Shown one piece after another: positions 3,410-59,840 of a stretch of DNA of 64,000 bases. A program made the translations under genes and the position numbers. This stretch comes from Enterobacter phage phiEap-3, in the sequence record KT321315.1; one strand, written 5' to 3'. Positions within the stretch are counted from its first letter, which is position 1. The number at the start of each line of letters is the position of its first letter. The notes under the pieces were generated by a model. It was not told the origin of the DNA. It searched no databases and worked only from the letters and a program-made list of their open reading frames with translations.

Positions 3410-4273
3410 ATGGCTTACCAAACAGCAAAAAAACTAATTGATGTCGGTGAAATCGGCAACCCATCAACAGGCGATCCGCTTTATGATGGTGGTGTTAAAC
3501 TGAACGAAATGATCACCAACGTTTATAATGCGTTTGGTGATGTGCGTATGCTGTCTGCAAACGAAGGTGTCGGTAACATGGTGATCCATGCTACCGGATA
3601 CTATCAGAAATTACCACGCACTTACTATTCAAGTACACCGATCGAACTGGGTTCCCTGCATGACATGGATACTTCAACAGGTTCGATTACCGTTGTTCTT
3701 CCTTCTGGTAAGGTTGGCGAAGGTTGCTACTTCATAAATAGTACGGGTAGTGTCTCTGTTGATCGTCCTATCGCGTTTCGTCCTCAAGTTGGCGATACAA
3801 TCGCGGGGGTTGCAGACCAGTTGTACATCACGTCACCTTACACCTTTGTAAAAATATGGTGTACCAAAAAAGAAGGTGCGATCACAACATGGGATTATTC
3901 TGTAGAATCTATGTTCGGTTCTAAAACGATGCCTGTTGACACTACGGCGCTTGTACTGAAAGCAAACCCGACTGCTATTCCTATGTTCGGATATAGCGAA
4001 TTTAGCGGGGCTAAGGTGCTCGTATACGCAGAAAACGTAGCTGGTACAGTTACCAAAATGGCGGAAGTTTTAATGACCGTGGATCGTGTAAACAAAACGA
4101 TTTATTCAACGGAATACGCTATTTTGAAAAACAGTGAAGATGAAATGTTTACATTAAACTTTACTGTCGGTGCTGGTGATGTCGTATACGCTAACGTGCA
4201 AGCGATCAAAGAAGATCGAATTAAATTCACGATTAAAGCAATCGATACGATTAAATCAGGGATCGCGTCATGA
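3410..4273 (+). CDS. 9: Baseplate wedge / long-tail-fibre attachment protein gp9
   Basis: 287 aa versus 288 aa in T4. Synteny. An AAGGAAAAACAATG ribosome-binding site is present. Confidence 0.75.
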   Translation: MAYQTAKKLIDVGEIGNPSTGDPLYDGGVKLNEMITNVYNAFGDVRMLSANEGVGNMVIHATGYYQKLPRTYYSSTPIELGSLHDMDTSTGSITVVLPSGKVGEGCYFINSTGSVSVDRPIAFRPQVGDTIAGVADQLYITSPYTFVKIWCTKKEGAITTWDYSVESMFGSKTMPVDTTALVLKANPTAIPMFGYSEFSGAKVLVYAENVAGTVTKMAEVLMTVDRVNKTIYSTEYAILKNSEDEMFTLNFTVGAGDVVYANVQAIKEDRIKFTIKAIDTIKSGIAS

Positions 4274-6087
4274 AACAAGAAATTTTAATAGGTCAGGTTG
4301 TAGACGATGGTACAGGCGATTACCTGCGTCGAGGTGGTCAAAAGACTAACAGCAACTTTACAGAATTGTATAACATGTTGGGGGATGGTGAGATCCCCCA
4401 TCCAGCAGGTGCCTGGAAAACCTTTGCGGGTACGACGCTATCACCAAAATTTGGTGAATCATGGGCGTTGAATACCAGTGCAAACAAAATCACCGTAAAC
4501 CTCCCGAAAGGCGGCGTAGGCGACTATAACAAAGTTATTCGTCTGCGTGATGTGTGGTCGCGTTGGGCTACCAACAACGTTAGACTGATCCCCGCAACTG
4601 GTGATACTATCAAAGGTTCCCCAACTCCTAAAGATCTGTTTAAAGATTTTATGGATGTGGAACTGGTGTATTGTTCTCCGGGCCGTTGGGAATACGTCGA
4701 AAACAAACAGATTGACAAAATCACAACTTCGGATCTGGCAACAGTAGCAAAAGAAACGTATATTGCTACTCAGGGACAAACTGACTTCCCTAACGTATTC
4801 GGTGTTGGTAATGAATACAACCTGCAATCGTTCGAAGTTTACTATCGCGGTAACTTGCTGTTCATCGATGAGAAAGACGGATTCAATGCTGATAACTCAG
4901 ACTATGGATCGATTGGTTCTGCTCCTGGTGAACTGGTTGCGCTTGATGGTAATTCAGTACGCCTTAAAAACCCGTGTAACGCTGGTGACACTCTTCAATT
5001 TGTTACCTATCTAGATGGGTTAGCAACATGGCGGTCGAGCTATGAAGCGTATGTGATGCGCATGTATCAGACTGGTGATACTTCTCTGGAAACCGTTCCT
5101 GGTGAACAGTGGGTAGGCGATCTGACAACCAAAAAAGAGTTTACACCTGCTGAATTTGGTGTTAACCCTCGCGTGTTGATTAACCCTAACTCGTTTGAAC
5201 TGCTTCTCAACGGTAAACAACTGGTTAAAGGCGGTGACGCTGACTATCCGGCGTTTTCCTGTGAAGGTGCGGAAGGTGTTGATGAAAGTACGTGTGTTGG
5301 TAACTCTGGTACATGGGTTCCGTCAGGACAGGATTACAGCTTAGTATTCACTGATTCTGTAGTGACTTCAATCAAGTTTGCTCAGGAACTGGAATCCGGC
5401 GACGTTGTAACGATTCGTTGGTTTAACAATGATATTGGTACTCTGATGGATTGGGAAGGAACTGGCGGTATTAAAGAAAAAGCTGATAAGGTTTATCTCA
5501 ATAACGAAGAAGAAGTTATATTGACGAACCGTATCGAATATACCGATTATAATAACCCTTCTCAGAAAACAATGCGTAATACAGGGGAAACCTATCAGGG
5601 ACGTATTCTGGATATTCAGGCTATGTTTGATATTATCCACCCGATCGGAACCATCTATGAAAACGCACACAACCCGGCAAACCCTGCTGATTATATGGGC
5701 TTTGGTGGTTGGAAACGTTACGCAGAAGGTTATTTCCTGGCTGGCTGGACATCAAATGCAGCGGATCCTGATTTCGCATTAAACAATAATGATTTAGATA
5801 GTGGTGGTCAACCGAGTCATACGGCAGGTGGTACTGGTGGCGATCGTGGTACAGAAATCAAAATCATCAACGTTCCTGAACTTGTATCAAAAGATAAAGT
5901 TCTGATTGCTGATGAAAATGGTGCTGTGATCATTGGTGGTTGTCAGTTAGACCCTGATGCTTCTGGCCCTGGATACACTAAATACCGTGAGGATACATTG
6001 AAAGTGAATCAGGGTAACACATTACCTGATAAAATCAAAACTATTCCACCGTATATGACTGCACATCGCTGGATAAGGGTTGCATAA
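4270..6087 (+). CDS. 10: Baseplate wedge protein gp10
   Basis: 605 aa versus 602 aa in T4. ATGA overlap with gp9. Synteny. Confidence 0.8.
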   Translation: MKQEILIGQVVDDGTGDYLRRGGQKTNSNFTELYNMLGDGEIPHPAGAWKTFAGTTLSPKFGESWALNTSANKITVNLPKGGVGDYNKVIRLRDVWSRWATNNVRLIPATGDTIKGSPTPKDLFKDFMDVELVYCSPGRWEYVENKQIDKITTSDLATVAKETYIATQGQTDFPNVFGVGNEYNLQSFEVYYRGNLLFIDEKDGFNADNSDYGSIGSAPGELVALDGNSVRLKNPCNAGDTLQFVTYLDGLATWRSSYEAYVMRMYQTGDTSLETVPGEQWVGDLTTKKEFTPAEFGVNPRVLINPNSFELLLNGKQLVKGGDADYPAFSCEGAEGVDESTCVGNSGTWVPSGQDYSLVFTDSVVTSIKFAQELESGDVVTIRWFNNDIGTLMDWEGTGGIKEKADKVYLNNEEEVILTNRIEYTDYNNPSQKTMRNTGETYQGRILDIQAMFDIIHPIGTIYENAHNPANPADYMGFGGWKRYAEGYFLAGWTSNAADPDFALNNNDLDSGGQPSHTAGGTGGDRGTEIKIINVPELVSKDKVLIADENGAVIIGGCQLDPDASGPGYTKYREDTLKVNQGNTLPDKIKTIPPYMTAHRWIRVA

Positions 6088-8160: not shown

Positions 8161-9912
8161 ATGATCATCGACAAATTAAATCCGTTGCCGAAGATCCCGT
8201 TTGTTGATGGCGTCCCAGATGACGCCACGACTCAAACGAAGATTCTTTGGATCAAAAACGGTGAAACTCTGGACGGTTCGCCAGATAAAGTGTCAAACAC
8301 TGGTAGTCTTAACCGAACTGGTGTAAACATCCAGCAGAACGCGGTTCAGTTAGAACAAAATACCATCACCCATAATAATAAAATCAACGAAGTAATCGAT
8401 CAGGTTAACTTGATTACTGAAAACATTGATGCTATTGGTGATGAAAGCGTAATCAAAAAAGTTAACCAGTTGGATCAGGATGTTCAGGCATTAACTTTAT
8501 CGAACACCCAAACACAGAACAAGGTAGCACAGTTAACCCTTTCTGTAAATGCTCAGAACGATGAAATTGGTGAATACGATCCAGAAAAGGATCCTAAACA
8601 CCGCACAATTCGTAATGATATCATTTACATCAAGAAAGAAGTTGGTTCATATCCGGGATTTAACGTTGATGGTGATGTTGATCCCTCTTCTACTGGTACT
8701 GGCCTTAAATACCGCGTACTGAGTAACCAACGTGCTATTTCTATGCAGGAAACCCGCATAACCAAACTGGAAGATGATTGGGCGCTTTCCGAAGTAGGAC
8801 AACTGACAGAAGAAGTAAAAGAACTTCGTGCTGAAATGGGTGATTCTGGTCTTGCCACAACCCGATCAATCTATGCGCGAATTAAGATCCTTGAGGATGG
8901 TTCTGTTGTAATGCAAAATGAACTTGATGCGATTAATAGTTATATTGGTCGCACGTCAGGTTCAACCAGTTCCATTAACGATCGTGTGAACAGTCTGGAA
9001 AACTCCGTTAGTTCTCTGGCTACACAAATCAACGATCCGGTAACTGGTATCACTGCACAAATTGCAACCATTAATGGTCAAATTGGTACGGTTTCTGCTC
9101 AGGGTAGTATCCGTTATGATATTGCGGAAAACAAACGCAGATTGATGGATATGGAAATGATTCTGGGTGAATCCGGTGATGAAGGATTGCAGGGGCAAGT
9201 TGCGATCTTAACTGGTGACATTGGCGAAGATTCAGATCCTACCAGTATCAAAGGCCGTTTGAGTGTTGTTGAAGGTGAATTACGCACCAACACTAGCGCA
9301 CTCTGGGAACTGCAAGGCGTTGTAGGTAACTCTTCTAGTGGCCTCGTTGCAACTAGCCAGCAGGTTAACAAAGAAATCTATGGTGATGGTGTTAGTGCCG
9401 ATCCTGTTACTCGCGCTGGTTTGAAAACGACAACCCGTAACCTGTTCACTCAGGTAGGCGATAACGCAGAAGGTAACGAAACGGGCATTTATGCACTGAT
9501 TGCCGACCTTAATAAACGTGTTGAGGATTTAGAAGCGTTGAACATTGCACAGGCACTTGCAGATCGCGTAACTATCGAAGATCTGAATGCTAAACTGGCT
9601 CTGTACATCAAAGAAGCTGACGCCGATCTCCGTTATGAGAGCAAAAACCCGCCGCTGGCATTCGGTACTAACCTAACTGGTGATACTGAATACACTACTG
9701 GCGATCCATTGTCTCTAAGCGTAACTATGACTGGTGGTGTTTCTCCGCTGTCTTACCAGTGGACGAAAAACGGTGTAAACGTTGGTACTGATGCTAACAC
9801 ATTTACCATCGATTCGCTACAGCCTTCTGATTCCGGAACCTACAAAGTAACGGTAACTGATGCAAGCCATAAAGTCATCGTTTCTGATGAACTGGCGATC
9901 ACTGTCGCTTAA
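8161..9912 (+). CDS. wac: Fibritin (whisker antigen control, Wac) with a C-terminal Ig-like, Hoc-type domain instead of a foldon
   Basis: The N-terminus 'LPKIPFVDGVPDD...ILWIKNGE' and 'RTIRNDIIYIKKEVGSYPG' resemble T4 Wac. The long central part is a heptad coiled-coil. The C-terminal ~88 aa (YQWTKNGVNVGTDANTFTIDSLQPSDSGTYKVTVTD) resemble the Hoc Ig repeats encoded at 28935-29996. Confidence 0.85.
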   Translation: MIIDKLNPLPKIPFVDGVPDDATTQTKILWIKNGETLDGSPDKVSNTGSLNRTGVNIQQNAVQLEQNTITHNNKINEVIDQVNLITENIDAIGDESVIKKVNQLDQDVQALTLSNTQTQNKVAQLTLSVNAQNDEIGEYDPEKDPKHRTIRNDIIYIKKEVGSYPGFNVDGDVDPSSTGTGLKYRVLSNQRAISMQETRITKLEDDWALSEVGQLTEEVKELRAEMGDSGLATTRSIYARIKILEDGSVVMQNELDAINSYIGRTSGSTSSINDRVNSLENSVSSLATQINDPVTGITAQIATINGQIGTVSAQGSIRYDIAENKRRLMDMEMILGESGDEGLQGQVAILTGDIGEDSDPTSIKGRLSVVEGELRTNTSALWELQGVVGNSSSGLVATSQQVNKEIYGDGVSADPVTRAGLKTTTRNLFTQVGDNAEGNETGIYALIADLNKRVEDLEALNIAQALADRVTIEDLNAKLALYIKEADADLRYESKNPPLAFGTNLTGDTEYTTGDPLSLSVTMTGGVSPLSYQWTKNGVNVGTDANTFTIDSLQPSDSGTYKVTVTDASHKVIVSDELAITVA

Positions 9913-48681: not shown

Positions 48682-48702
48682 ATGGCCTTCGGGCCATTTT
48701 TT
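48682..48702 (+). terminator. Rho-independent terminator before gp34
   Basis: ATGGCC-TTCG-GGCCAT followed by TTTTT. Confidence 0.7.
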
Positions 48703-48705
48703 GTA

Positions 48706-48713
48706 TATAAATA
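48706..48713 (+). promoter_or_regulatory. T4-type late promoter TATAAATA (gene 34)
   Basis: Exact octamer after the terminator, ~33 nt before the gp34 ATG. Confidence 0.75.
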
Positions 48714-48745
48714 TTGGTATTGAATACAATATAGGAAAAAAGATA

Positions 48746-51700
48746 ATGGTAGCTAAATCATTCCGCGCACGAAGTGGCCTTGATGCTGCTGGTGAAAAAG
48801 TTATCAACGTTGGGAAGGCTGATCGTAATACGCTGAGTGACGGCGTTAACGTTGACTTTTTCAATGAATTTAACGGAATCCAGCAGTATGACCCGACCCG
48901 TGGTTATTCTCAAGACATGGCGATCATTTATGCGCGTCGTATCTGGTACGCAAAACAGAATATTGCTTCCCCTGCTGGGGCTTTCGACGAATCCAAATGG
49001 ATCGCAACTCGTAATGACCCGAAATGGGTTTATAGTAACGTAACCACTCCAGACGGTAGCATTATTGAATCTGGTAGTTACATTATGGCTGATGGACGCT
49101 TTACTGAACTTCTGTACCTGCTGCCGGACAACCCGACAGAGGGCGACGTAATCACGTTTAAAGATTGCGGTGGTTTAGTAGGTGTGAACAGTATCCTTGT
49201 TAAGTCTAACACCCGTCAGATCCGTTTACGTGCGGTACAATCGGCACAGTATAGACTGACCCACCCGTACATGATCGCAACGTTTATCTATAACGGTAAC
49301 GTATGGCGTGTTGCTGAAACTCTGGACAACCGTGATTCTGAGATCGTGAACGCAACCGGAACAGGTTCATTCCAGTTACAATCTGGTATGACAGTTTTCC
49401 GTAATAGTGCTACAGGTAAAATTACTCTCCAGTTGCCGAAATATGCAAATGATGGTGATGTGATCACAACCTATGACGCTGATAAAATGAACTCTATCAA
49501 CATAGCCGTTTTGCAGATTTATCCAGGTAGTGGACACACTATTTCTGATGGTGCAAGTACTGGTGTTACTTCGGTAACTAGCCAGAAATCCGGCTTTGGT
49601 ATGTTCATCTTTGATGCACAGAATAGCCAATGGAAAGTATATGATGCTGATAACCGTGTTCGTCTGCGTCGTATCTATAGTGATTTAAACGCAGTTCCTA
49701 ACGATTACGTTTTTGTTACTGCAAACCCTTCTGGGACTATACCAAACGTTACAGTTACCCTTCCAACTGATGTTGCCGATGGTGATCGCGTTTACGTATC
49801 CCTTTACATGATGGGTAAAAACCAGAACTGTACAATCAAAGTTAAAGATGGTACAACGGACAAGATCCGCACCAACAAAAATATGATGCAGTTCCCGCAG
49901 CGCAAAGATTATCCGCCTGATGATTGGTTTAGTGTAACTTCATTAGCGTTTAATGCTGGTAGCGATTACCTCCCGTATATCGAGTTTTCTTATCTGAAAG
50001 CTACGAAAGAATGGGTTGTTGCTAATTATCGTCCAATCGTTGAACGTGTTGATGCAACTAACAGATCGCGTACTGGTGTTATTGCTCTGGCTGCACAGGC
50101 AGAAGTAAACAAAAACTTGGAAGATAACCCGAACGATGAAACCGCTATTACTCCGAAGACGTTAGCAAATAAAACTGCTACTGAAACCCGTCGTGGTATT
50201 GCGCGTTTAGCGACAACTGCTGAGGTTAACAAACTTTCAACCGATACCTATCTGGATGATGTGATTGTTACCCCTAAGAAGCTGAACGAAAGAACAGCAA
50301 CTGAAACCCGTCGTGGGCTGGCAGAAATCGCAACTCAGGCAGAAACCAACGGAAGCACCGATGATATTACTATTGTAACCCCTAAAAAGTTGCATAACCG
50401 TATTGCATCGCCGACCTTGACTGGTATCCTTGCCCTTGTTGCTACTGGTGGTGCTCCTAACACTAACACGGATCGTGCTCAGGCTGGTACTGGGGTTTAT
50501 GACCATTCAGATTATCAGAAAGCGGTAACGCCTAAAACTCTTCGTGAGTATAAAGCGACTCAGTTACAATCCGGTGCTGTATGGCTGGCTTCTGAAACCG
50601 AAGTTATTAACGGTACTGTTGCAAGTTCAAACATTCCGACCGTTGTTACTCCGGAAATGCTGCACAAGAAAACCTCTACTGATGGTCGTATTGGTTTGAT
50701 CGAGATTGCTACTCAGACAGAAACCAACGCAGGGACTGATTACACGCGAGCGGTAACGCCTAAAACGCTTAACGATCGTGCTGCAACAGAAACGCTGACA
50801 GGTATCATTGCAATTGCAACCACTGCCGAAGTATCAGCAGGTACTGTAACGAATAAAGCGATCGTGCCGTCTAAACTGAAAGGTTATCTGGACGATACAA
50901 GTCATATTACTGTTGCTACTGCTGACGGATTAACTCAATCTGGTACTATCTGGACTACGGTTAACATCGGTATTCAATCAGCAACTGAAACCCAACGTGG
51001 TACTTTACGCGTTGCTACGCAGTCTGAGACGAACGCAGGGACATTAGATACAGTATTTGTCACCCCTAAGAAGTTACACGCTAAGAAAGCGACTGAGAGC
51101 GCAGAAGGTATCATTCAGGTGGCTACGGCTGCTGAAACTACTGCTGGCACCGTTGCAAACAAGGCTGTTTCTCCTAAGAACTTGAAAAATACAATTCAGG
51201 TTGATACTTCATGGCAAGCTACCGATCTGGTACGTGGTACTGTGAAGCTGTCTAAGGGGCTTGGTACTTGGTCGGGTAATGATGTGGCTGGTTCTACTCT
51301 TCCGGATGATGGTTATGCCGCTGTAGGTGTTGCTGTTTCTCCGTATGAACTGAACTTAACACTGAAACACTATCTGCCGATCGGGGCTAAAGCGGTTGAT
51401 GCTGATAAGCTGGATAACCTGGATTCTTCCCAGTTCATTCGTCGTGATGTTAATCAGACGGTTAACGGGGCATTGACTCTAACGAAAGCAACCACTGTAC
51501 AGGCTGACATTAACTCAACAGCCGACGCAAGTTTCCGGGTAATGAATGTTAGTGGAGATCTGAACGTTGGTGATGGTTCATCGATGGGTAAACTTCGTTT
51601 GAATGGTGGTTCATCTAACGACTGGTCAATTCAAGCAAGTTCAGCCTCTGGGCGTATTGCAATGATCTCAACGGGTAACACTGGCACAGTTCATCTTTCT

Positions 51701-52519
51701 GTGTATAATGATACTCGCGGCGTTGTAGCTAACGTTAAATTCCAGGCTCCTGAAATTCAGGCGATTAGCAAAGTGACGCTGGGTAATGATACAGTGATCA
51801 CGGCTGCTGGTTCTGTTCTCTCTATGGGTACGAAAAACAAGACAACTAAGATCCTAACTTCGGACGCTGGTAACATTTTGGCAGAAGAATCTGGGAACTC
51901 TTATAAAGTCTTTACTGAGAAGAACGCGCAAACCTTGCTGAATCCTACGTATGTACGTAAAGCAGGTGATACGATGTCTGGACGGTTGACGGTAAGCAAC
52001 AGTTCAATTATCATCGCAGGTCAAGCGGCTTGGTCAACGCTGGATGCAGTAACAGAAGCATCTAGGGGTAACTGGACGGCTGAGATCACAGCATCGGCGC
52101 AATACAACGTGCTTCCAGGTTATGCGGTTCCGGTTCTTGAACCTGATCCAATTAATCCGGATATCATGATTGTAACCCGTTATACCTATGTTAAAGCACC
52201 TGGTACTTTAACGCAGTTTGGTAACGGAACTGCATTCACTTATCAGATTTGGGCACCTCGTCCGACCTCCGGTGCTGGTGTTAATGCGCTGGCGCAATCC
52301 TTCTGGATCCGTCAGATGAACCCAATTACGGGTAAATTTGATGAGTGGGGCCGCATGTATACGAGCAACAACCCGCCTACTGCTGGTGAGATTGGTGCAA
52401 CGTCTGCTGTTGGTACTACAGTTAAAAACATGACTGTTACCGATTGGATCAAAGTTGGTAACGTTAGGATTTACCCAGATCCGGTTACTCAGACAGTTAA
52501 ATTTGAGTGGGTGGCATAA
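48746..52519 (+). CDS. 34: Long tail fibre proximal subunit gp34
   Basis: 'MVAKSFRARSGLDAAGEKVINVGKADRNTLSDGVNVDF...QQYDPTRGY', 'RARLGVIALA' and 'TATETRRGIARLATTAEVN' repeats; C-terminus 'IYPDPVTQTVKFEWVA' as in T4 gp34. Late promoter at 48706. Confidence 0.9.
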   Translation: MVAKSFRARSGLDAAGEKVINVGKADRNTLSDGVNVDFFNEFNGIQQYDPTRGYSQDMAIIYARRIWYAKQNIASPAGAFDESKWIATRNDPKWVYSNVTTPDGSIIESGSYIMADGRFTELLYLLPDNPTEGDVITFKDCGGLVGVNSILVKSNTRQIRLRAVQSAQYRLTHPYMIATFIYNGNVWRVAETLDNRDSEIVNATGTGSFQLQSGMTVFRNSATGKITLQLPKYANDGDVITTYDADKMNSINIAVLQIYPGSGHTISDGASTGVTSVTSQKSGFGMFIFDAQNSQWKVYDADNRVRLRRIYSDLNAVPNDYVFVTANPSGTIPNVTVTLPTDVADGDRVYVSLYMMGKNQNCTIKVKDGTTDKIRTNKNMMQFPQRKDYPPDDWFSVTSLAFNAGSDYLPYIEFSYLKATKEWVVANYRPIVERVDATNRSRTGVIALAAQAEVNKNLEDNPNDETAITPKTLANKTATETRRGIARLATTAEVNKLSTDTYLDDVIVTPKKLNERTATETRRGLAEIATQAETNGSTDDITIVTPKKLHNRIASPTLTGILALVATGGAPNTNTDRAQAGTGVYDHSDYQKAVTPKTLREYKATQLQSGAVWLASETEVINGTVASSNIPTVVTPEMLHKKTSTDGRIGLIEIATQTETNAGTDYTRAVTPKTLNDRAATETLTGIIAIATTAEVSAGTVTNKAIVPSKLKGYLDDTSHITVATADGLTQSGTIWTTVNIGIQSATETQRGTLRVATQSETNAGTLDTVFVTPKKLHAKKATESAEGIIQVATAAETTAGTVANKAVSPKNLKNTIQVDTSWQATDLVRGTVKLSKGLGTWSGNDVAGSTLPDDGYAAVGVAVSPYELNLTLKHYLPIGAKAVDADKLDNLDSSQFIRRDVNQTVNGALTLTKATTVQADINSTADASFRVMNVSGDLNVGDGSSMGKLRLNGGSSNDWSIQASSASGRIAMISTGNTGTVHLSVYNDTRGVVANVKFQAPEIQAISKVTLGNDTVITAAGSVLSMGTKNKTTKILTSDAGNILAEESGNSYKVFTEKNAQTLLNPTYVRKAGDTMSGRLTVSNSSIIIAGQAAWSTLDAVTEASRGNWTAEITASAQYNVLPGYAVPVLEPDPINPDIMIVTRYTYVKAPGTLTQFGNGTAFTYQIWAPRPTSGAGVNALAQSFWIRQMNPITGKFDEWGRMYTSNNPPTAGEIGATSAVGTTVKNMTVTDWIKVGNVRIYPDPVTQTVKFEWVA

Positions 52520-53643
52520 TGTCAAACTTAATGGCGGGGTTCGGCCCCGATTTTGTAGAAACGCAAATTCTATCGGAAACAAACAGCGTAACTTACAGAA
52601 TAACCGCAAAGGCAACACATCCCAATGCGGTTCCTAATCAGTATGAGTTTACACTAAATCAAAAGGCGGTAGGGACACCGCCTAGTGTTGGGATCAACGT
52701 ATGGAGAATTAACAATGCTATAGTTGATCCAATTAAAACCTTCACATTATCGAATGATAATTCATCGACTGCAAACAAAGCGTTTGTTGAATATATGGAT
52801 GCTCAAACTTCTGGGCTGTATTTGATAATGACTAACGGTGAATACAAAACAAGCCAAATCGTTGATGATTGGTTTGCTAAAAACAGATCCGTTATGTGGC
52901 AAGGTGCTGATTTCGCTCAGAGATTCCCAAATTCCGCATATGTTGCGTTGTATGGGGCCGCAAAATCTCGTATACTGATTGAATCGTTTTACGCAAACGA
53001 TGGAGTTTTAAAAGAAGATTCACGCGCATCAATCGATCTTGTCTATGATAATGTTGGTGATGTTGGGCGAACTGGTGTACCTTTCCGATCTGTTGAAGAT
53101 ACGGAAGAATACAATTCAACCAATGGATCTGAATATAAAGTGTATCCTGTTGCAAACCCAGTGATCTCTAAACTGGCTGATTACGGTATGGCTCCTGGAT
53201 TAGCTATGATGATTACTGGTGATTTTTACGCCAGTAAAGCATTATTGGATGCTGGATCAACAACAAGGGTTACTGTTCGATGGTTTACGGGTACTGCTCA
53301 AACTTCATCATCGGTGATTGAAGTTCCTGCAAACAAACCGGATGAGTGGTTACGATTTGAACAGTTCTATACGATCCCTAGTGGTTGTGATGGATTTAAC
53401 GTTGCTGTATCTCGTTATCCTAAACCCGCTACGGATAGTTTATCTGCGATTCGTAACTTCGTGATGGTTCAGGTATCTGCTGCCGAAGCTGATCAAAACT
53501 TTGCTGCACAGTTTGGGGTTAACGGTATCAGAATGAACAACATGATCGATGGTGGAACACCGTATATATTTGAATTGCCGAATACTAAGGTTTATCCTGG
53601 TGGCGATTATTCTGCTTCCGAATTCCGTGAAGTTGATGCATAA
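52519..53643 (+). CDS. 35: Long tail fibre hinge protein gp35
   Basis: ~375 aa versus 372 aa in T4. TAATG overlap with gp34. Lies between 34 and 36. Confidence 0.75.
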   Translation: MSNLMAGFGPDFVETQILSETNSVTYRITAKATHPNAVPNQYEFTLNQKAVGTPPSVGINVWRINNAIVDPIKTFTLSNDNSSTANKAFVEYMDAQTSGLYLIMTNGEYKTSQIVDDWFAKNRSVMWQGADFAQRFPNSAYVALYGAAKSRILIESFYANDGVLKEDSRASIDLVYDNVGDVGRTGVPFRSVEDTEEYNSTNGSEYKVYPVANPVISKLADYGMAPGLAMMITGDFYASKALLDAGSTTRVTVRWFTGTAQTSSSVIEVPANKPDEWLRFEQFYTIPSGCDGFNVAVSRYPKPATDSLSAIRNFVMVQVSAAEADQNFAAQFGVNGIRMNNMIDGGTPYIFELPNTKVYPGGDYSASEFREVDA

Positions 53644-53692: not shown

Positions 53693-54361
53693 ATGGCAGA
53701 TTTAAAAGCTGGTTCTACAGTCGGGGGTTTACCTATTTGGCACTCCGGCACATTTCCGCTGGTTCCGGTTGGTAATACTCTAACCTATCGCGGATATAAG
53801 GTTTATACTGAAAACGATAAACCGCAAGCATCAAATAACGACTTCGTTTCTAAAGCAAGCGGTGGTCAATATTTGGGTGTAGTTGCCTTTAAACAGGGGC
53901 TACAAATTAACGCTACTTTCACAGGCGGAAGTGACCAGAACGGTTTATATTCTGGTGATGGTGATGGTGCGACATTATCAAAAGCCAACATAGATCTTGT
54001 ATCATGGTACGGTATTGGTATTCGTTCATCTTCCGGAACTAATGGTCGCGTATTAGTCATCAACGCTCGAAATGGTGATTTAAACACTCAGGGTAATATC
54101 ACGGTTGAAAAACAAATCAGTATTACAACCGCTAACCCTACTGACGCAAGTCATGCAACACGAAAAAGTTATGTTGATGGTCAGATAAATACTGTCACAA
54201 CAAATGCTAATAGCAGGGTATTACGCGCTGGCGATACAATGACAGGGCTATTAACTGCCCCGCAATTCGCGAGCACAGGCGCGGCTTCCCGTCCCGAACA
54301 CGTACCACGGCTCGACCAGGTAATTACTAAAGGGACTATCATAGATTTTGGATCTTATTAA
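53693..54361 (+). CDS. 36: Long tail fibre distal connector gp36
   Basis: 222 aa versus 221 aa in T4. TATAAATA at 53668. Synteny. Confidence 0.8.
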   Translation: MADLKAGSTVGGLPIWHSGTFPLVPVGNTLTYRGYKVYTENDKPQASNNDFVSKASGGQYLGVVAFKQGLQINATFTGGSDQNGLYSGDGDGATLSKANIDLVSWYGIGIRSSSGTNGRVLVINARNGDLNTQGNITVEKQISITTANPTDASHATRKSYVDGQINTVTTNANSRVLRAGDTMTGLLTAPQFASTGAASRPEHVPRLDQVITKGTIIDFGSY

Positions 54362-54369
54362 GGTGAAAC

Positions 54370-57300
54370 ATGGCTGATTTAGCAAAAATTCAATTCCTAC
54401 GTAGCACAGTTGCGGGGAAAACACCTACTACAAGTCAGCTTGCAGATGGTGAACTGGCGATCAACATGGCTGATTATGCCATTTACACGAAAAATGGTTC
54501 TTCGATCGTTCAGTTAGCGGGTAAAGGTATCCCAGAAACAAATACCAAAAAATTAACAGTAAATGGGCCTAGTGCTCTTAATGATACCGTTACCGTAGCG
54601 GAAGGTAAAACTATTACTTTCACCAACGCGGATTTGAGCGGGGGTATGGTTCGTCATATCACTGGTAAAAACGCGCTTAACGATGGTTGGTACATCGGTT
54701 CTGGTGGTGAGAGCAATAAAGGGTTTTTAGAAATCGGTACAATTGATGACGGTGATGAAGAGATCCGTTTCGTTTCCCGTGGTTCTGGTGATACTGTTCG
54801 CCGTACTCTGAAACTTATTGATTCCGGTGGTAACACTCGCGTACCAGGTAACATCTATATTGATGAAGCTATGGGCGGTGCTGGTTCTGCTTTTATTTCA
54901 AAAAGTAAAGCATATTTCGGTGCTGGCGGTGCTGATATCTATATGCGTAACACTGCTGGCGGTGCAACAAATCAGTTAACGATCACTGATGGCGGCGAAT
55001 TGCTGTTTCAAGCAAAACCTGTATACTGGGACGGTCGTAAACCGACTTTAACCGAATTGGGGATCGGTCGGGTTGAAAACGCGCGTCAGCTTGAGCAAGA
55101 TAATTTCCCTGTAACTACTGGCAACGAAACCCGTTGGATCAAAGTTGCTCTGTTAAAAGATCCGGCTTCCGGTCAGAGTCGCTTGCAACTGATGGTGACT
55201 AACGGCGGTAACTATGGTTCTACGCGTAGTTCTATCGACTTTATTGATTGTACTGCTCGAAGCATTCCAGCGACATTAACAAGCGGTAACGTTCGTTCTT
55301 ACTTGCAAGTTCGTCGTTTAGGGGATACTGCAATTGATAATGTTAACCAGATGCGTTATAGCCTTGTTCGTACCTCAGAAGGGTTAGAACTGTGGTTTAC
55401 TCAACGCGCATTCATTGGTGGTGTTAAAGTTGCGCTGTTGTCTATCGCTGGCGGTGCTGCTACTGAATATTATCTGCCTACTGGTTACACGATTTCTGCA
55501 ACTGCTCCGGAAGGTTTGGTTGAGAGTGTGGTTATTCGTATCTATGATGAAATGAATAAGCCTAACCTTGACGATGGTACTGATGGTATTCTGTCTGTTG
55601 CTAAAGGTGGTACAGGTGCAAGTACAGCGGCTGCTGCTCGTACAAACTTAGGTTTGGGTACTGCTGCAACCCGTGATGTTGGTACAGGTTCCGGACAAGT
55701 AATGCTTGTTGGTGCTTACGGTTTGGGCGGTAAGGGTACATCATATACCGTTTCTAACGCTCGCGACTATCTGAAACAACTGCGTACTGATGGTTCTCAG
55801 TTCATGCGAAATACGCTTGGTACTGAAATTAACTATGGTATGGGCGCAAGTTTTTATAGCTCTGTATCAGATGTTCATGCGGTGATCTCGGTTGATTGGA
55901 ATACTGGACGCGTTAAAGTTGGTGCAACTAATGATGCTAACTTAAACTCAGATACCGGAAAAATCAGCTCTCAGGAACTGTACGGTACTGCATTTAAACC
56001 AACTCCGGATGACGTAGGGGCTGTTGCTCGTACTGGTGATGGTATGACAGGTGATCTGTCTATTACCAAAGTGTCTCCCGGATTCCATTTAAATGCTGAG
56101 AGCGGAAACTCCGTAATTTGGTTTAAGTATAAAGGGGTTGAAAGTGGTGCTGTGTGGGCGTTGCCTAATACTGCCTCTTCTGGTGAAGTTCGCATTCGTG
56201 CCAGAACGTCGGGCGGAACGACTGGGGGCGAATTCTCATTTAAATCAGACGGTACATTTACATCACCGGGTAATATTAACATCACATATGGTGCATTTAA
56301 CGGTCGAACTGTTAATACATCCTATGCGAACTTTAATAACACAAGTTCAACAACAACCGAACAAACCGTTTCTATTAGTGGTTCGCAGCACACTCCGCTG
56401 TTACTGAATAGACCGACTAACTCAAACTTGTCTATCGGGTTTAAACTTTCCGGAATGAACATGAAACGTTTGGGTATCGATGTAAACGGCGATATTCGTT
56501 ACGGTGAAGCCGAAAACCAGACACAAAACGCATGGCTGTTGACTTCGGATACCATAAACAGATGGAGTGTTAACTTCGGGCGTGATATTAACGTTGCAGG
56601 TGTAGTTAATTCAACTGGTGGATTTGCTGGCCCTGTTACTGCATATGATTTGACCGGGGTAACTCAGGATCTTGATGCTTTAACATTGAACAATGCCGAA
56701 CCAGGACATATTAAAGTTTATTCGTGCCGTAGTATGGGTGGCGGTGATAACATCACCAATAAACCTTCCGGCGTAGGTGGTAACTTTATTGTTATCGTTG
56801 AATGTCTCCGTAAAGTAGGCGATACTGATTACACTAACCGTCAAGTATTACGCGCATCGGACAATAAACGCAGTTGGGAACGTTGGTTTACTGTTAGCGG
56901 TACTGCTAAAGCCTGGACACCGTGGAGAATGAACGTTGTTAGCGGAAACGATGACGATGTATCATTTAAATCTGTTACCACGACTACAGGAAACCTGAAC
57001 AGTGGAAACGATCTGATTGTTGCTAACAACGCTCGCGTAGGCGGCAACTTAGGGTTAGGTGGTGCTTCTTCCACGACGTACACTGATAAAGGTGTTGTGA
57101 TTGGTAACGGTAGTGCTCTGTTAGAAACTACTGATGGTCGCGTGATTATTGGTAGTTCTGGTGCTGGTCGTGCCGTTGAATTGCGTCCTGGTGGCCCAAC
57201 TCAAACCAACAACGGGATCAAAGTGACTGCTACCTCTGGAAGTGGTGGTGATACTGCGATCGAGTATGCACAAGGGGCGAAAATTCGTTCTAATAACGGC

Positions 57301-58554
57301 GGCGCGTTGATTATTTCTGCTAAAGCAGGTCAAGCAATTTATCTGCGACCGCAAGGTGATACATCCAGCACAAACGAAACCCGTATTGATTCAAACGGTA
57401 GTATCACGGTTAACGGCAATATTAACGCTAACGGTACATTAACTTGTACTGGCGGTGCTGTTAACGGTGAACTTACTGTTAACAACGTTGGCCCGATCCT
57501 GAAAAAAGGTGTTAGAACTTATGCAGATGGTTCAGTAACTGTTAATGAAACCGACGGCATCAAGATGTTTGGCAACGGTACTATATCTGGTACTATGAGA
57601 TTAGTTGAACGTGTTAACGATACTACGTTTATTGGTCTTCAAACATCGCTTAATGCAGATACCAATGGTTGGTTTGAGTTTCACCATAACGGGATGCTTC
57701 GAGCAAACCATGCGGAACTGACAACAGGTCTTCGTGTTAAAGGTTCTCCGATTATTCAGCCAACAAGCGACAACAATGCTTGGGCGTCTATTAACTTTAG
57801 ACATACTGACGGTACTACAAATCGTGGTATTTTGTTTGCTGATGCTGCTGGTAATATCGGGTTTAGTAATATAAACGGTAAAAACGTTATATGGAACACT
57901 GGTAACTACTTTATCATTCAGCAAGGCGAACTGAACGTTGGTGTTAACAACGGTGGTACTGGTGAAGGTAACGAAGATAGAAACAAAGCCAACTTCTACA
58001 ACAAAGGTTCTATTGATTGCGCAGGTACACGCGCATATCAAGATACAAACGATAATAATCGTTGGGTTCGTGAAGTTCGTGGCGTAAGACATCTTATGCA
58101 AGGAACTGATCTTGGTTCTGAAAACATATTTGTTGAACGTGTTGGACAGCGCCATTTCCATATGCTTCATGTATTTGGGGCTAACAGTAATGGTTGGTTT
58201 GAATTCCGTAATAATGGTGATATGTCGTGTAACGGTACGTTGTACGCACAGGATGTTTATATAACTTCCGATAAACGACACAAACGTAATATCACTAAAG
58301 TTGAAAGCTCCGAAGAAATTTTGAGCAAAATGTCAGCTTATAATTACGAAGTTCGAGATCCTACAGCAGATGATGCATGGACAAAAGCAACGGGGCTTAT
58401 TGCTCAGGAAGTTCAGGAAGTTCTTCCTACTGCTGTTGATGATTCAGATCCTGAACATATTCGCTTGAACTATAACGCGATTGTTGCGGTTCTTGTAGAA
58501 CAGGTCAACAAGTTAACTGCTAAAGTTAATGAACTTGAAAGAAAACTTAATTAA
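54370..58554 (+). CDS. 37: Long tail fibre distal subunit gp37 with C-terminal S74 intramolecular chaperone domain
   Basis: The N-terminus 'MADLAKIQFLRSTVAGKTPT...ADGELAINMADY' is gp37-like. The C-terminal ~100 aa 'SDKRHKRNI...GLIAQEVQEVLP...LNYNAIVAVLVEQVNKL' match the endosialidase / T5-pb1 type self-cleaving chaperone. Confidence 0.9.
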   Translation: MADLAKIQFLRSTVAGKTPTTSQLADGELAINMADYAIYTKNGSSIVQLAGKGIPETNTKKLTVNGPSALNDTVTVAEGKTITFTNADLSGGMVRHITGKNALNDGWYIGSGGESNKGFLEIGTIDDGDEEIRFVSRGSGDTVRRTLKLIDSGGNTRVPGNIYIDEAMGGAGSAFISKSKAYFGAGGADIYMRNTAGGATNQLTITDGGELLFQAKPVYWDGRKPTLTELGIGRVENARQLEQDNFPVTTGNETRWIKVALLKDPASGQSRLQLMVTNGGNYGSTRSSIDFIDCTARSIPATLTSGNVRSYLQVRRLGDTAIDNVNQMRYSLVRTSEGLELWFTQRAFIGGVKVALLSIAGGAATEYYLPTGYTISATAPEGLVESVVIRIYDEMNKPNLDDGTDGILSVAKGGTGASTAAAARTNLGLGTAATRDVGTGSGQVMLVGAYGLGGKGTSYTVSNARDYLKQLRTDGSQFMRNTLGTEINYGMGASFYSSVSDVHAVISVDWNTGRVKVGATNDANLNSDTGKISSQELYGTAFKPTPDDVGAVARTGDGMTGDLSITKVSPGFHLNAESGNSVIWFKYKGVESGAVWALPNTASSGEVRIRARTSGGTTGGEFSFKSDGTFTSPGNINITYGAFNGRTVNTSYANFNNTSSTTTEQTVSISGSQHTPLLLNRPTNSNLSIGFKLSGMNMKRLGIDVNGDIRYGEAENQTQNAWLLTSDTINRWSVNFGRDINVAGVVNSTGGFAGPVTAYDLTGVTQDLDALTLNNAEPGHIKVYSCRSMGGGDNITNKPSGVGGNFIVIVECLRKVGDTDYTNRQVLRASDNKRSWERWFTVSGTAKAWTPWRMNVVSGNDDDVSFKSVTTTTGNLNSGNDLIVANNARVGGNLGLGGASSTTYTDKGVVIGNGSALLETTDGRVIIGSSGAGRAVELRPGGPTQTNNGIKVTATSGSGGDTAIEYAQGAKIRSNNGGALIISAKAGQAIYLRPQGDTSSTNETRIDSNGSITVNGNINANGTLTCTGGAVNGELTVNNVGPILKKGVRTYADGSVTVNETDGIKMFGNGTISGTMRLVERVNDTTFIGLQTSLNADTNGWFEFHHNGMLRANHAELTTGLRVKGSPIIQPTSDNNAWASINFRHTDGTTNRGILFADAAGNIGFSNINGKNVIWNTGNYFIIQQGELNVGVNNGGTGEGNEDRNKANFYNKGSIDCAGTRAYQDTNDNNRWVREVRGVRHLMQGTDLGSENIFVERVGQRHFHMLHVFGANSNGWFEFRNNGDMSCNGTLYAQDVYITSDKRHKRNITKVESSEEILSKMSAYNYEVRDPTADDAWTKATGLIAQEVQEVLPTAVDDSDPEHIRLNYNAIVAVLVEQVNKLTAKVNELERKLN

Positions 58555-58574
58555 GGGGCTTCGGCCCCTTTTCG
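58555..58574 (+). terminator. Rho-independent terminator after gp37
   Basis: GGGGC-TTCG-GCCCC followed by TTTT. Confidence 0.7.
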
Positions 58575-58585
58575 GAGGTTAACTA

Positions 58586-59113
58586 ATGGCTATTTCCGGC
58601 CCACTAGTTGGAAGTTCGGCGGTTAATGAAACTGGACAACGATCCATGATTCAAGCTGCTGCCGTCGTTCGACTCGGTACACCGTTTTATATGTCTCAAT
58701 TAATTGGGCGTAGCAAATGGCATTTTACTTTTGTTCCCCAGGAACGTTGGTATAACAACACTCGTTGGCGTGGTGTTTGGCGTAAAGGCGCTGATACTAA
58801 CGTATGGTACAACATTTCTGACTCTGCTTATACTATTGTTGGTGATTATAACGGTAAGCAAATAGGTACTATTGGCGCCGTTGGTGATGTAATAGAAAAC
58901 GGGTCTAACTTAACTATTTTTGATGGTCCAAATAGAAATGTTCGCATTCTCTTCACTCGTGTAGATAATAATCAACAATGGACGTTTGATTTCAGGATAT
59001 CAAGTTATATGCGTGATGGATTCAGAAACTATGATGCAATGAGTAGAGATTGGTATGGATTCTTGAATGCTAATGTGGGTGTTACTATTTCCGGAATCAT
59101 TACTGAGATCTAA
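58586..59113 (+). CDS. Hypothetical protein in gp38 position (not T4- or T2-type gp38)
   Basis: 175 aa. GGAGGT ribosome-binding site. Lies between gp37 and t. No Gly-rich adhesin motifs and no similarity to T4 gp38. Confidence 0.5.
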   Translation: MAISGPLVGSSAVNETGQRSMIQAAAVVRLGTPFYMSQLIGRSKWHFTFVPQERWYNNTRWRGVWRKGADTNVWYNISDSAYTIVGDYNGKQIGTIGAVGDVIENGSNLTIFDGPNRNVRILFTRVDNNQQWTFDFRISSYMRDGFRNYDAMSRDWYGFLNANVGVTISGIITEI

Positions 59114-59120
59114 TTTTTAA

Positions 59121-59146
59121 GGCTACCATACAGGTAGCCTTTTTTG
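59121..59146 (+). terminator. Rho-independent terminator
   Basis: GGCTACC-ATACA-GGTAGCC followed by TTTTTTG. Confidence 0.7.
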
Positions 59147-59192
59147 TTGTATCCTAAATATACCTATAGTAACCTAAGAAGAGTCTTATAAA

Positions 59193-59840
59193 ATGGCTGA
59201 GAGAAATCCCGTAGATAAACTAGCCTTATTTGATCGGGTAATCTCGTTTGTGATGGGTGTGAAAACATGGAAACAATTGCTGATAAAAATAATTCTAATA
59301 ATGGTTATGTTTCTTATGGTAGTAACTTGGTACAAATGGACTGATATATTCCCGATGATAAAAGGTGCCCTTGTAGTCGATACAAGGGCTATCGAAATGG
59401 AAAGAACAGAAAAGTTTAATCAATCCGCGTTGGAACAGTTGAGCATAGTTCATCTTACTTCCAACGCGGATTTTTCAGCGGTACTGGCATTCAGACCAAA
59501 GAATATAAACTATTTTGTTGACATTGTAGAATATCAGGGTAAATTACCATCCCAAATCGATCCTAAAAACCTCGGTGGTTATCCGATCGATAAAACATCC
59601 GAAGAATACACGAATCATATAAATGGCTTGTACTATTCATCAACTACAGCAAGTTCCTACCTACCGACACGCGATTTTGTGCCAGTAGCTTATACTTTTA
59701 GTTGCCCTTATTTCAATCTTGATAACTACTATTCTGGATCGGTTTTGATGGAATGGTATGCAAAGCGGCCTGATATACCAGATATGAAGCTAAACATCAT
59801 ATGTGGACAGGCCGCGCGCATTTTAGGTCGAGCGAGGTGA
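59193..59840 (+). CDS. t: Holin t
   Basis: 215 aa versus 218 aa in T4. The N-terminal transmembrane segment, 'LEQLSIVHLTSNADFSAV..FRPKN(I/L)NYFVDI' and the C-terminus 'ICGQAARILGRAR' are near-identical to T4 T. Confidence 0.9.
   Translation: MAERNPVDKLALFDRVISFVMGVKTWKQLLIKIILIMVMFLMVVTWYKWTDIFPMIKGALVVDTRAIEMERTEKFNQSALEQLSIVHLTSNADFSAVLAFRPKNINYFVDIVEYQGKLPSQIDPKNLGGYPIDKTSEEYTNHINGLYYSSTTASSYLPTRDFVPVAYTFSCPYFNLDNYYSGSVLMEWYAKRPDIPDMKLNIICGQAARILGRAR

Follow-up and report, generated by a model that had tools for sequence, protein, structure and literature searches.

The DNA analysed here, referred to as the window, is a stretch of 64,000 nucleotides from Enterobacter phage phiEap-3 (KT321315.1), in which the long tail fibre genes are found in the order gp34-gp35-gp36-gp37-gp38-t. 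All features described below lie on the plus strand. The homologue of gp37, the distal long tail fibre subunit, was taken from the list of open reading frames. It is located between gp36 and the gp38/t homologues at 54370-58554 (including the stop codon) and encodes a precursor of 1394 amino acids. Residues 1-1242 correspond to phrog_10316 (“tail fiber protein”) and residues 920-1394 to phrog_1699 (“long tail fiber protein distal subunit”). A coding sequence of the same length is present in Klebsiella phage KMI7, with a nucleotide identity of 94.5%.

The extreme C-terminus of gp37 (residues 1300-1394 of 1394) was identified as an intramolecular chaperone (IMC) of the Peptidase_S74 type. It spans S1300 to N1394 (95 residues, 58267-58551) and is predicted to be released from the precursor. 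The Pfam profile Peptidase_S74 (PF13884, curated cutoff 22 bits) matches residues 1300-1356 over profile positions 1-57 of 58 with a score of 43.5 bits and an E-value of 3.9e-11. When the sequences in the PDB were searched with phmmer, the best match among solved structures was 6F45_A, the “Long tail fiber distal subunit” of phage S16 (E 1.1e-13); the alignment covers gp37 residues 1281-1393 and thus includes both the cleavage site and the IMC. A profile built from 16 sequences also reaches the self-cleaving domain of MYRF (7DC3, 4e-11), another phage tail fibre (8JOV, 5e-7) and the neck appendage chaperone of GA-1 (3GUD, 1e-3), whose chain starts with SDERHK and aligns with SDKRHK of gp37. 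Judged by these comparisons, the S74 similarity of the gp37 C-terminus is far above chance. In the preliminary description, which was made from the sequence alone, an S74 or endosialidase-type IMC had been proposed on the basis of the motifs SDKRHKRNI, GLIAQEVQEVLP and LNYNAIVAVLVEQVNKL. All three are in frame within 58240-58554, and the Peptidase_S74 HMM search suggested there as a check gave the above-cutoff match, so that the domain and its C-terminal location are confirmed. Its extent has to be corrected: the domain starts at Ser1300 (58267), 27 nt further downstream than had been assumed, and comprises 95 residues rather than about 100.

In the 16-sequence alignment, the IMC core GLIAQEVxxVLP and the L and Y of “LNY” are invariant. 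A related IMC is found in 1,034 phage records; a word-indexed protein search with the IMC fragment as query returned only 14 homologues. No S74 domain other than that of gp37 was found in the window, where gp12, wac, gp10 and gp9 were checked. An AF2 monomer model of gp37 residues 1251-1394, calculated with a 15-sequence alignment, was poor (mean pLDDT 54, pTM 0.38), and the fold is thus supported by sequence only. The low quality of the monomer model probably results from the IMC being an intertwined trimer. Within this overall poor model, a long C-terminal helix is predicted with a pLDDT of 85-91 at residues ~1368-1393 (118-143 of the 144-residue fragment); such a helix would fit the coiled coil of the T5 chaperone (PMC4690869).

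The predicted scissile bond is Thr1299/Ser1300 (58264-58269, serine codon TCC at 58267-58269), with S1300 falling on position 1 of the S74 profile. Lys1305 (58282-58284) is the predicted general base of a Ser-Lys dyad; it is invariant and has the i+5 spacing known from T5 pb1, which is cut between Thr1263 and Ser1264 and has Lys1269 at i+5 (PMC4690869). The residues S1300, D1301, R1303 and K1305 (S-D-x-R-x-K) are identical in 16 of the 16 aligned sequences. The serine proposed earlier as the cleavage site had therefore been placed correctly. In S16, gp37 is cleaved at DLNVS^SDRRIKK, and autocleavage of the IMC uncovers the docking surface for gp38 (PMC7917993). From the aligned sites of S16, T5 pb1 and GA-1, we infer that gp37 undergoes autoproteolysis at Thr1299-Ser1300, which would leave a mature protein of residues 1-1299 (54370-58266). 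The last five residues of this mature form fit the pattern [DN]V[YE]I[RT], as they do in all ten loci compared.

The residue in front of the scissile serine is threonine here and arginine in the other nine of these loci. This difference could be taken to mean that the S74 domain has lost its cleavage activity and remains attached to the C-terminal end of the fibre as a permanent cap, so that gp38 could not dock. However, neither Ser1300 and Lys1305 nor the flanking D and R vary among the aligned sequences, a threonine at -1 is also present in T5 pb1, where Thr1263 participates in catalysis (PMC4690869), and the co-inheritance of an intact gp38 gene speaks for use of the docking site. We thus regard a non-cleaving domain as extremely improbable. 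In T5, the upstream Arg1250 and Asp1239 from the neighbouring chain serve as a “folding sensor” (PMC4690869). R1280, D1283 and D1295 of gp37 are candidates for such residues; these segments are too divergent for a reliable alignment with T5 and K1F.

At the end of gp37, there is an intercistronic hairpin (AAGGGGC-UUCG-GCCCCUU, 58553-58570; RNA fold -15.3 kcal/mol, z -2.0), and a GGAGG ribosome-binding site lies behind it at 58575-58579. A putative terminator is annotated at the equivalent position of phage KP15; an Rfam scan of the window gave no matches. The next gene, which begins 32 nt past the gp37 stop, encodes a short, 175-residue form of the gp38-type tail fibre adhesin (58586-59113). 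Pfam Gp38_N (PF21721) matches its residues 1-40 (E 3.1e-20), phrog_1121 (“tail fiber adhesin”) matches with an E-value of 2.4e-47, and residues 1-77 can be aligned with S16 gp38 (6F45_D). This gene is the defining feature of the T2/S16 type of fibre tip and had been missed in the preliminary description. Short gp38 proteins of the same sub-type are also found in KP15, RB43, leB and Metamorpho. In total, a word-indexed search yielded 5 relatives of the protein and an exhaustive search 30.

The N-terminal docking domain (residues 1-43, 58586-58714) is modelled by AF2 as three helices (8-16, 21-27 and 36-39). Foldseek superimposes it on 6F45_D over 44 columns with an rmsd of 0.8 A, 52% identity and a probability of 1.00. 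In S16 gp38, three tryptophans at the helix apices are the docking prongs (PMC6851490). These three residues are absent from the gp38 proteins of the window and of KMI7, which have L7, S20 and Y35 instead. Going by an alignment of 35 gp38 sequences, 19 of which have all three tryptophans and 8 none, the prongs vary within the family and are not a strict criterion. The C-terminal part (residues 44-175, 58715-59110) is predicted to be an all-beta domain (model pLDDT about 80) and is presumably the receptor-binding portion. A search of the PDB with the model of this domain gave no match at E <= 0.001, and in BFVD it matches only gp38-like proteins of Proteus and Vibrio phages. The polyglycine-sandwich domain GP38 (PF05268) gave no match in the gp38 of the window. 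Compared with gp38 of the Jiaodavirus Metamorpho, the C-domain is 91% identical, but the N-domain only 63%.

We also considered the T4-type gp38 chaperone as a candidate for the 175-residue protein and ruled it out, since there is no similarity to T4 gp38 (E 5.2). A more general reading is that the protein is a non-virion assembly chaperone, in which case the processed tip of gp37 would itself bind the receptor. This is how the database labels would have it: the gene is called “distal long tail fiber assembly catalyst” in KMI7, KP27, RB43, leB and others, and the partner in the majority of Slopekvirus phages has been termed “tail fiber assembly protein” (bioRxiv 10.64898/2026.05.12.724579). 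Its length, which is close to that of T4 gp38 (183 residues), and the lack of the GP38 polyglycine domain point in the same direction. Apart from the missing similarity to T4 gp38, this is opposed by the strong Gp38_N match and the 0.8 A superposition on the attachment domain of the S16 adhesin. Moreover, the C-domain has moved between genera separately from the docking domain, as the comparison with Metamorpho illustrates, which is expected of a receptor-binding module. RefSeq (for KP15) and PHROGs both classify the protein as an adhesin, and the 175-residue protein has been modelled on the fibre tip of phage Miro (PMC13611949). An assembly chaperone is thus improbable, and we treat the protein as an adhesin in the following.

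The closest structurally characterised system is S16, for which the gp37-gp38 structure is available (PDB 6F45; Dunne et al. 2018, as reported in PMC7917993 and PMC6851490). In both phages, gp37 carries a C-terminal IMC, with the S^SDRRIKK site of S16 aligning with T^SDKRHKR here, the gp37 C-termini are homologous (E 1e-13 to 1e-18), and a separately encoded gp38 has an N-terminal three-helix docking domain. They differ in the length of the IMC (113 residues in S16, 95 here), in the replacement of the docking tryptophans by L, S and Y, and in gp38 itself, which in S16 has 249 residues and a polyglycine-sandwich receptor domain, whereas the 175-residue protein has an unrelated beta domain.

The same arrangement, an S74 domain at the C-terminus of gp37 with a Gp38_N adhesin gene directly downstream and then the holin gene t, is found in the Tequatrovirus phages T2 and T6. 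Peptidase_S74 matches T6 gp37 with 39.6 bits, and T2 gp37 is matched by the IMC of the window over 99% of the IMC length. The IMC identity between these two phages and the window is only 31-35%. Their gp38 also differs in having the PF05268 GP38 domain with its glycine-rich motifs (238 bits in T6, in addition to Gp38_N).

KP15 shares with the window, as does Miro, a genus-level backbone with 94% DNA identity up to residue ~1036 of gp37. KP15 gp37 has an S74 domain (58.2 bits) followed by a 175-residue Gp38_N protein, and a gp37-gp38 tip complex has been modelled for the Slopekvirus Miro (PMC13611949). The distal cassette of KP15 is a different one: the IMC is 44% identical, gp38 is 35% identical overall (60% in the N-domain and 22% in the C-domain) and retains all three tryptophans in KP15, and the mature gp37 proteins differ in length by 66 residues.

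The preliminary description had concluded that a gp37 with its own chaperone implies a fibre tip unlike both the T4 and the T2 type. This would amount to a third architecture, in which the mature end of gp37 is the receptor-binding tip. It is correct that T4 gp37 is devoid of an S74 domain, as had been pointed out. Furthermore, the mature tip (residues 1037-1299) is rare, being full-length in only six phage records, and the gp38 of the window has neither the docking tryptophans nor the polyglycine sandwich. The conclusion could nevertheless not be upheld: gp37 of both T6 and T2 has the domain, no solved structure matches better than S16 gp37, and a gene for a Gp38_N adhesin starts 32 nt past the stop codon. 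An IMC combined with gp38 is in fact the majority arrangement in the literature: a self-cleaving chaperone is present in the majority of T-even-like gp37 proteins, which subsequently bind a gp38 monomer (PMC9569957), and T2, T6, S16 and Slopekvirus are described as having a self-cleaving gp37 chaperone together with gp38 (bioRxiv 10.64898/2026.05.12.724579). A third architecture is therefore very improbable. With a high degree of confidence, we instead assign the locus to a KP15-like Klebsiella Slopekvirus whose long tail fibre tip is of the standard T2/S16 type.

T5 pb1 and similar IMC proteins have a C-terminal, trimer-dependent self-cleaving chaperone with Ser and Lys at i+5, as predicted for gp37, and T5 shares the threonine in front of the serine. 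In these proteins, however, binding or degradation of the receptor is carried out by the mature C-terminal domain, and cleavage is not followed by the docking of a separate adhesin. At 133 residues, the IMC of T5 is also longer, and it has long beta-hairpin “tentacles” (PMC4690869). T4 has a fibre subunit in the equivalent position with the same architecture in the N-terminal two thirds. Unlike the protein described here, T4 gp37 is not equipped with an S74 chaperone; its end is formed by a Collar / Phage_fiber needle tip. A Gp38_N adhesin is likewise missing from T4: its gp38 (183 residues) is an unrelated non-virion chaperone (PMC9603124) that matches no Pfam family. With an S74 domain in gp37 and a gp38 that shows no similarity to that of T4, the window does not contain a T4-type tip.

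One feature that the lineage has in common with T4 is gp57A, whose presence elsewhere in the genome had been raised as a point to be checked. No significant tblastn match to it was detected in the window, which begins downstream of its expected position. The gene is encoded elsewhere in KP15, and KP15 and all six phages with the same gp37-gp38 module have it with an identity of 98.8-100%. Since gp57A has been kept in these relatives, the IMC is not a replacement for gp57A in this lineage. Most simply, gp57A would be retained for gp34 and gp12, and possibly for gp37 as well.

Comparison with KP15 also shows where the conserved backbone ends. In a protein alignment, gp37 identity falls away past about residue 1036, and the distal part of the mature protein (residues ~1037-1299, 57480-58266, ending in DVYIT) is variable. 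At the DNA level, blastn aligns 53693-57479 at 94.2% and 59119-59840 at 98.8%, whereas only 58391-58731 can be aligned in between, at 66%. The region 57480-59118, which comprises the gp37 tip, the IMC and gp38, is thus an exchanged host-range cassette with flanks 94-99% identical to KP15 DNA. The gp37-gp38 module is common to six GenBank phages with an identity of 92-94.5%, and a second breakpoint appears to be located at the boundary between the N- and C-domains of gp38. In the literature on KMI7, pR7_1 and R4_1, we found nothing that ties the module to host range.

We had predicted that the gp38 N-domain would co-vary with the 40 gp37 residues before the cleavage site. This prediction was not supported (Spearman r 0.15, Mantel p 0.16), in a small sample of ten paired loci, three of which are near-identical. 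Together with the missing docking tryptophans and polyglycine sandwich and the poor IMC model, this result counts against the T2/S16 reading. In the same sample, co-variation was seen between the gp38 N-domain and the IMC (r 0.51, p 0.005); the two are encoded only ~30 nt apart, and linkage explains this correlation as well as function does. It is conceivable, if rather unlikely, that the cassette at 57480-59118 represents a separate sub-type of docking between gp37 and gp38. This idea derives from the tryptophan-less attachment domain of gp38 in combination with a rare gp37 tip that has Thr instead of Arg before the cleavage site, and from a beta domain for which no related fold has been solved and which passes between Slopekvirus and Jiaodavirus separately from the docking domain.

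By analogy with the solved relatives, assembly of the tip would proceed as follows. After synthesis of gp37 as a precursor of 1394 residues with the S74 chaperone as its C-terminal 95 residues, three copies of the IMC would associate and aid the in-register folding of the upstream trimeric, beta-structured tip. Once the trimer is folded, Ser1300, activated by Lys1305, would cut the Thr1299-Ser1300 bond, and the chaperone would depart, leaving the gp37 trimer with an exposed blunt end. A single 175-residue gp38 would then dock on this end via its N-terminal three-helix domain, so that its C-terminal beta domain faces the host receptor.

The combination of an S74 chaperone on gp37 with a gp38 adhesin is thus real, but it is ordinary and already known in T4-like phages. 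Its significance is therefore small, and its practical consequences concern annotation and engineering. As the mature fibre is predicted to end at T1299, the last 95 residues should be excluded from the receptor-binding tip. Receptor specificity most likely resides in the C-domain of the 175-residue gp38, a protein that many records mislabel as “assembly catalyst”; the modular exchange of this domain, as seen in the sequence comparisons, lends indirect support to such a role. For engineering, the cassette 57480-59118 is the unit that lends itself naturally to swapping. If the chemistry of the interface does differ, the gp38 modules of this lineage would not be interchangeable with tips of the tryptophan type, which would constrain host-range engineering.

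The gp37 ORF (54370-58554, + strand) encodes a precursor of 1394 aa, and the in-frame translation of 58240-58554 reads LYAQDVYITSDKRHKRNITKV...GLIAQEVQEVLP...LNYNAIVAVLVEQVNKLTAKVNELERKLN*, containing all three motifs quoted in the preliminary description. The S74 domain proposed there for the gp37 C-terminus was recovered by profile search: Pfam PF13884 Peptidase_S74 (“Chaperone of endosialidase”) matches aa 1300-1356 with an E-value of 3.9e-11 and 43.5 bits (curated cutoff 22 bits), a match that covers the 58-position model almost entirely. Several PHROG tail-fibre families also match the C-terminal ~110 residues. The top PDB sequence match to gp37 is 6F45 chain A, the gp37 of Salmonella phage S16 (E 1.1e-13, aa 1281-1393 aligned). 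With a 16-sequence profile this match rises to 1e-18, and further structures come within reach: the MYRF self-cleaving domain (7DC3), a second phage tail fibre (8JOV) and 3GUD, which is the chaperone released from the neck appendage of Bacillus phage GA-1 and whose chain start SDERHK aligns exactly with SDKRHK in the window. The aligned S74-bearing homologues show no variation at S1300, D1301, R1303 or K1305, or in the GLIAQEV..VLP core. Because the profile, the PDB matches and the invariant residues all align there, the domain start was set at Ser1300 (codon 58267-58269, + strand). The domain thus lies within 58240-58554 as first placed, but its true start is 27 nt further inside. The predicted released piece, the intramolecular chaperone (IMC), is 95 aa long, and the whole window holds one S74 copy. 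Homologues of gp37 are widely named “L-shaped tail fiber protein”, the name of T5 pb1, a label that probably stems from the common S74 domain alone.

The key context, which the preliminary description did not use, is a 175-aa ORF directly downstream (58586-59113). It matches Pfam Gp38_N (“Phage tail fibre adhesin Gp38 N-terminal domain”, E 3.1e-20), is spanned end to end by phrog_1121 “tail fiber adhesin”, and its residues 1-77 align to S16 gp38 (6F45 chain D). In an AlphaFold2 model (pLDDT 81, pTM 0.71), three short helices at the N-terminus lead into an all-beta domain, and modelled residues 1-44 superimpose on 6F45_D with 0.8 A rmsd at 52% identity. Sequence comparison with T4 gp38 gave no similarity (E 5.2). 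The name “distal long tail fiber assembly catalyst”, under which many GenBank records list gp38 adhesin homologues, describes the function of T4 gp38 and is therefore a carry-over from T4.

ORF, domain and PHROG matches place gp34 (48701-52519), gp35 (52507-53643) and gp36 (53693-54361) upstream of this pair and holin t (59193-59840) downstream. The gp34 ORF as called begins at a TTG (48701) and has 1272 aa, while the CDSs in KMI7 and KP15 have 3774 nt (1257 aa); the real start is probably the ATG at ~48746 (MVAKSF...). Between the gp37 and gp38 genes lie a hairpin with a UUCG loop and a ribosome-binding site, GGAGG. The hairpin is stable (58553-58570, AAGGGGC-UUCG-GCCCCUU, -15.3 kcal/mol), has a UUCG tetraloop, lies 5' of the gp38 ribosome-binding site and takes in the final two nucleotides of the gp37 stop codon; a “putative terminator” is annotated at the equivalent position in KP15. 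Elsewhere in the window, the 583-aa wac (fibritin) homologue (8161-9912) carries an immunoglobulin-like domain at aa 507-582 (Ig_3, Ig_2, I-set) after its Fibritin_C region.

The fibre tip had been described as differing from both the T4 and the T2 types, and only the first half of this comparison held. T4 gp37 has no S74 match in a Pfam search (Collar, Phage_fiber and Gp34_trimer only), as had been stated, and T4 gp38 matches no Pfam family. In contrast, T2 and T6 gp37 both bear an S74 domain with a Gp38_N adhesin gene downstream; in T6, Peptidase_S74 matches aa 882-940 (39.6 bits) and gp38 consists of Gp38_N and GP38. KP15 has the same layout as the window, with a gp37 of 1328 aa (Peptidase_S74, 58.2 bits) and a gp38 of 175 aa with Gp38_N. 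The arrangement of IMC-bearing gp37 and gp38 is common to the window, T2, T6 and KP15, and the window tip is of the T2/S16 type in its short-gp38 (KP15/RB43-like) form. Searching all phages by tblastn with the 95-aa IMC gave 1,034 records at E <= 1e-5; nearly all of these are full-length matches, and the “long tail fiber protein distal subunit” of T2 itself is one of them. Biochemical evidence for processing of the T2 gp37 C-terminus was reportedly presented in the 1980s by Drexler, Riede and Henning.

The window combines the S74 domain identity and conserved catalytic residues with an adhesin gene alongside, and both partners are homologous to the S16 complex. In S16, the last 113 residues of gp37 (the IMC) are autocleaved at DLNVS^SDRRIKK once gp37 has trimerised, which exposes the gp38 docking surface (PMC7917993); the same account has been given for T2, T6 and S16 (bioRxiv 10.64898/2026.05.12.724579). 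T5 pb1 is cut at Thr1263-Ser1264, with the Ser activated by Lys1269 and an Arg of the neighbouring chain tying cleavage to correct trimer folding (PMC4690869). The geometry of Thr1299-Ser1300...Lys1305 in the window is that of T5 pb1. By analogy, three IMC copies would nucleate folding of the gp37 tip, Ser1300/Lys1305 would make the cut once folding is done, and the mature fibre would end at T1299. A single gp38 would then dock by its three-helix domain and bind the receptor through its C-domain.

No gp57A was found in the window; comparison of gene order with KP15 puts the start of the window within gene 7, on the downstream side of 57A. The proposed check for gp57A elsewhere in the genome could be answered from relatives: KP15 encodes it as KP15_149A, beside gene 1 and a 57B-like gene, and all six phages that share the window's gp37-gp38 module have it (98.8-100% identity, tblastn). 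T4 gp57A is needed for correct trimerisation of gp34 and gp37 (PMC9603124), and gp12, gp34 and gp37 are named among the fibre proteins requiring specialised chaperones (PMC4690869). Since the window's gp12 and gp34 homologues have no S74 domain, retention of gp57A is expected and is no argument against the IMC.

The window belongs to a KP15-like Slopekvirus of Klebsiella (Straboviridae). Its whole gp37-gp38 stretch is matched in six records at 92-94.5% nucleotide identity (KMI7, PSKm2DI, pR7_1, R4_1, KP5 and NU-KP11), and in more than 100 further records the match is confined to the initial ~3.1-3.3 kb of gp37. Compared with KP15, the DNA is 94% identical through 57479 and 98.8% identical from 59119 on; between these points similarity is confined to 58391-58731 (IMC core to gp38 N-terminus, 66%). 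Judged by this identity profile, the distal part (57480-59118; gp37 tip, IMC and gp38) is an exchanged cassette. The mature tip (aa 1037-1299) is found at full length in the six relatives only, and its C-terminal half shares ~30% identity with fibres of Serratia and Cronobacter phages. Outside the six Slopekvirus records no close donor of the cassette was found, and the nearest IMC there (Marfa / 15882-6-2 phages) is 48% identical.

A gp37-like fibre with an IMC has been described for most Slopekvirus members; in that account the majority fibre pairs the IMC with a “tail fiber assembly protein” and a minority has a “gp38-like adhesin” instead (bioRxiv 10.64898/2026.05.12.724579, Discussion, Fig. 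S25). Since an S74-bearing gp37 and a 175-aa Gp38_N protein occur together in the KP15 type and in the window type alike, these two classes may be diverged alleles of a single arrangement. Alternatively, a third variant may be involved, e.g. the phT4A / KLB23 type. For the Slopekvirus Miro, an AF3 model of the gp37 tip with gp38 has been published, the latter termed “another variant of gp38” (PMC13611949).

Three tryptophans in S16 gp38 have been described as docking prongs (PMC6851490). At these sites (gp38 aa 1-43, 58586-58714) the window and KMI7 have L7, S20 and Y35, and KP15 and T6 have Trp throughout. In a set of 35 diverse gp38 N-domains, the full Trp triplet occurs in 19 and none of the three Trp in eight, so the Trp-less state recurs as a minority state and is not unique. 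Identity of the gp38 N-domain did not track that of the 40 residues before the cleavage site in a docking co-evolution test (r 0.15, p 0.16). It does track IMC identity (r 0.51, p 0.005), a correlation explained equally well by physical linkage.

The gp38 of the window is itself mosaic. In comparison with the Jiaodavirus Metamorpho, identity is 91% in the gp38 C-domain (58715-59110, against 4050-4583 of the Metamorpho locus L007), 63% in the N-domain, 47% in the IMC and 20% in the segment before the cleavage site. The difference between the two gp38 domains argues for a recombination breakpoint at their boundary, and likewise for exchange of the receptor domain between genera. The C-domain, modelled with a pLDDT of about 80, is not matched by PF05268, and no solved structure resembles it at E <= 0.001; it differs from the polyglycine sandwich of S16/T2 gp38, and its sole resemblances are to predicted gp38-like proteins from two Proteus phages (phiP4-3, PM2) and from Vibrio phage VH7D. 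Separately, a metagenomic protein of 303 aa (P0044) joins a T2-like gp38 N-terminus, glycine-rich motifs and a C-terminal S74-like chaperone (...NDVYIRSDRRLKI...) in one polypeptide, and could be a genuine fusion of gp38 with an IMC or a chimera produced by assembly or gene calling. Records of two Yersinia phages, PYPS2T and PYps55T, carry the label “tail protein and peptidase” on the feature in which the gp38 match falls.

The arrangement itself is thus already known: GenBank contains it and published papers describe it. A modestly interesting reading, unproven and in our view rather unlikely, is that the window represents a Trp-less docking sub-type whose receptor domain, of a kind without solved structure, would be mobile between genera.
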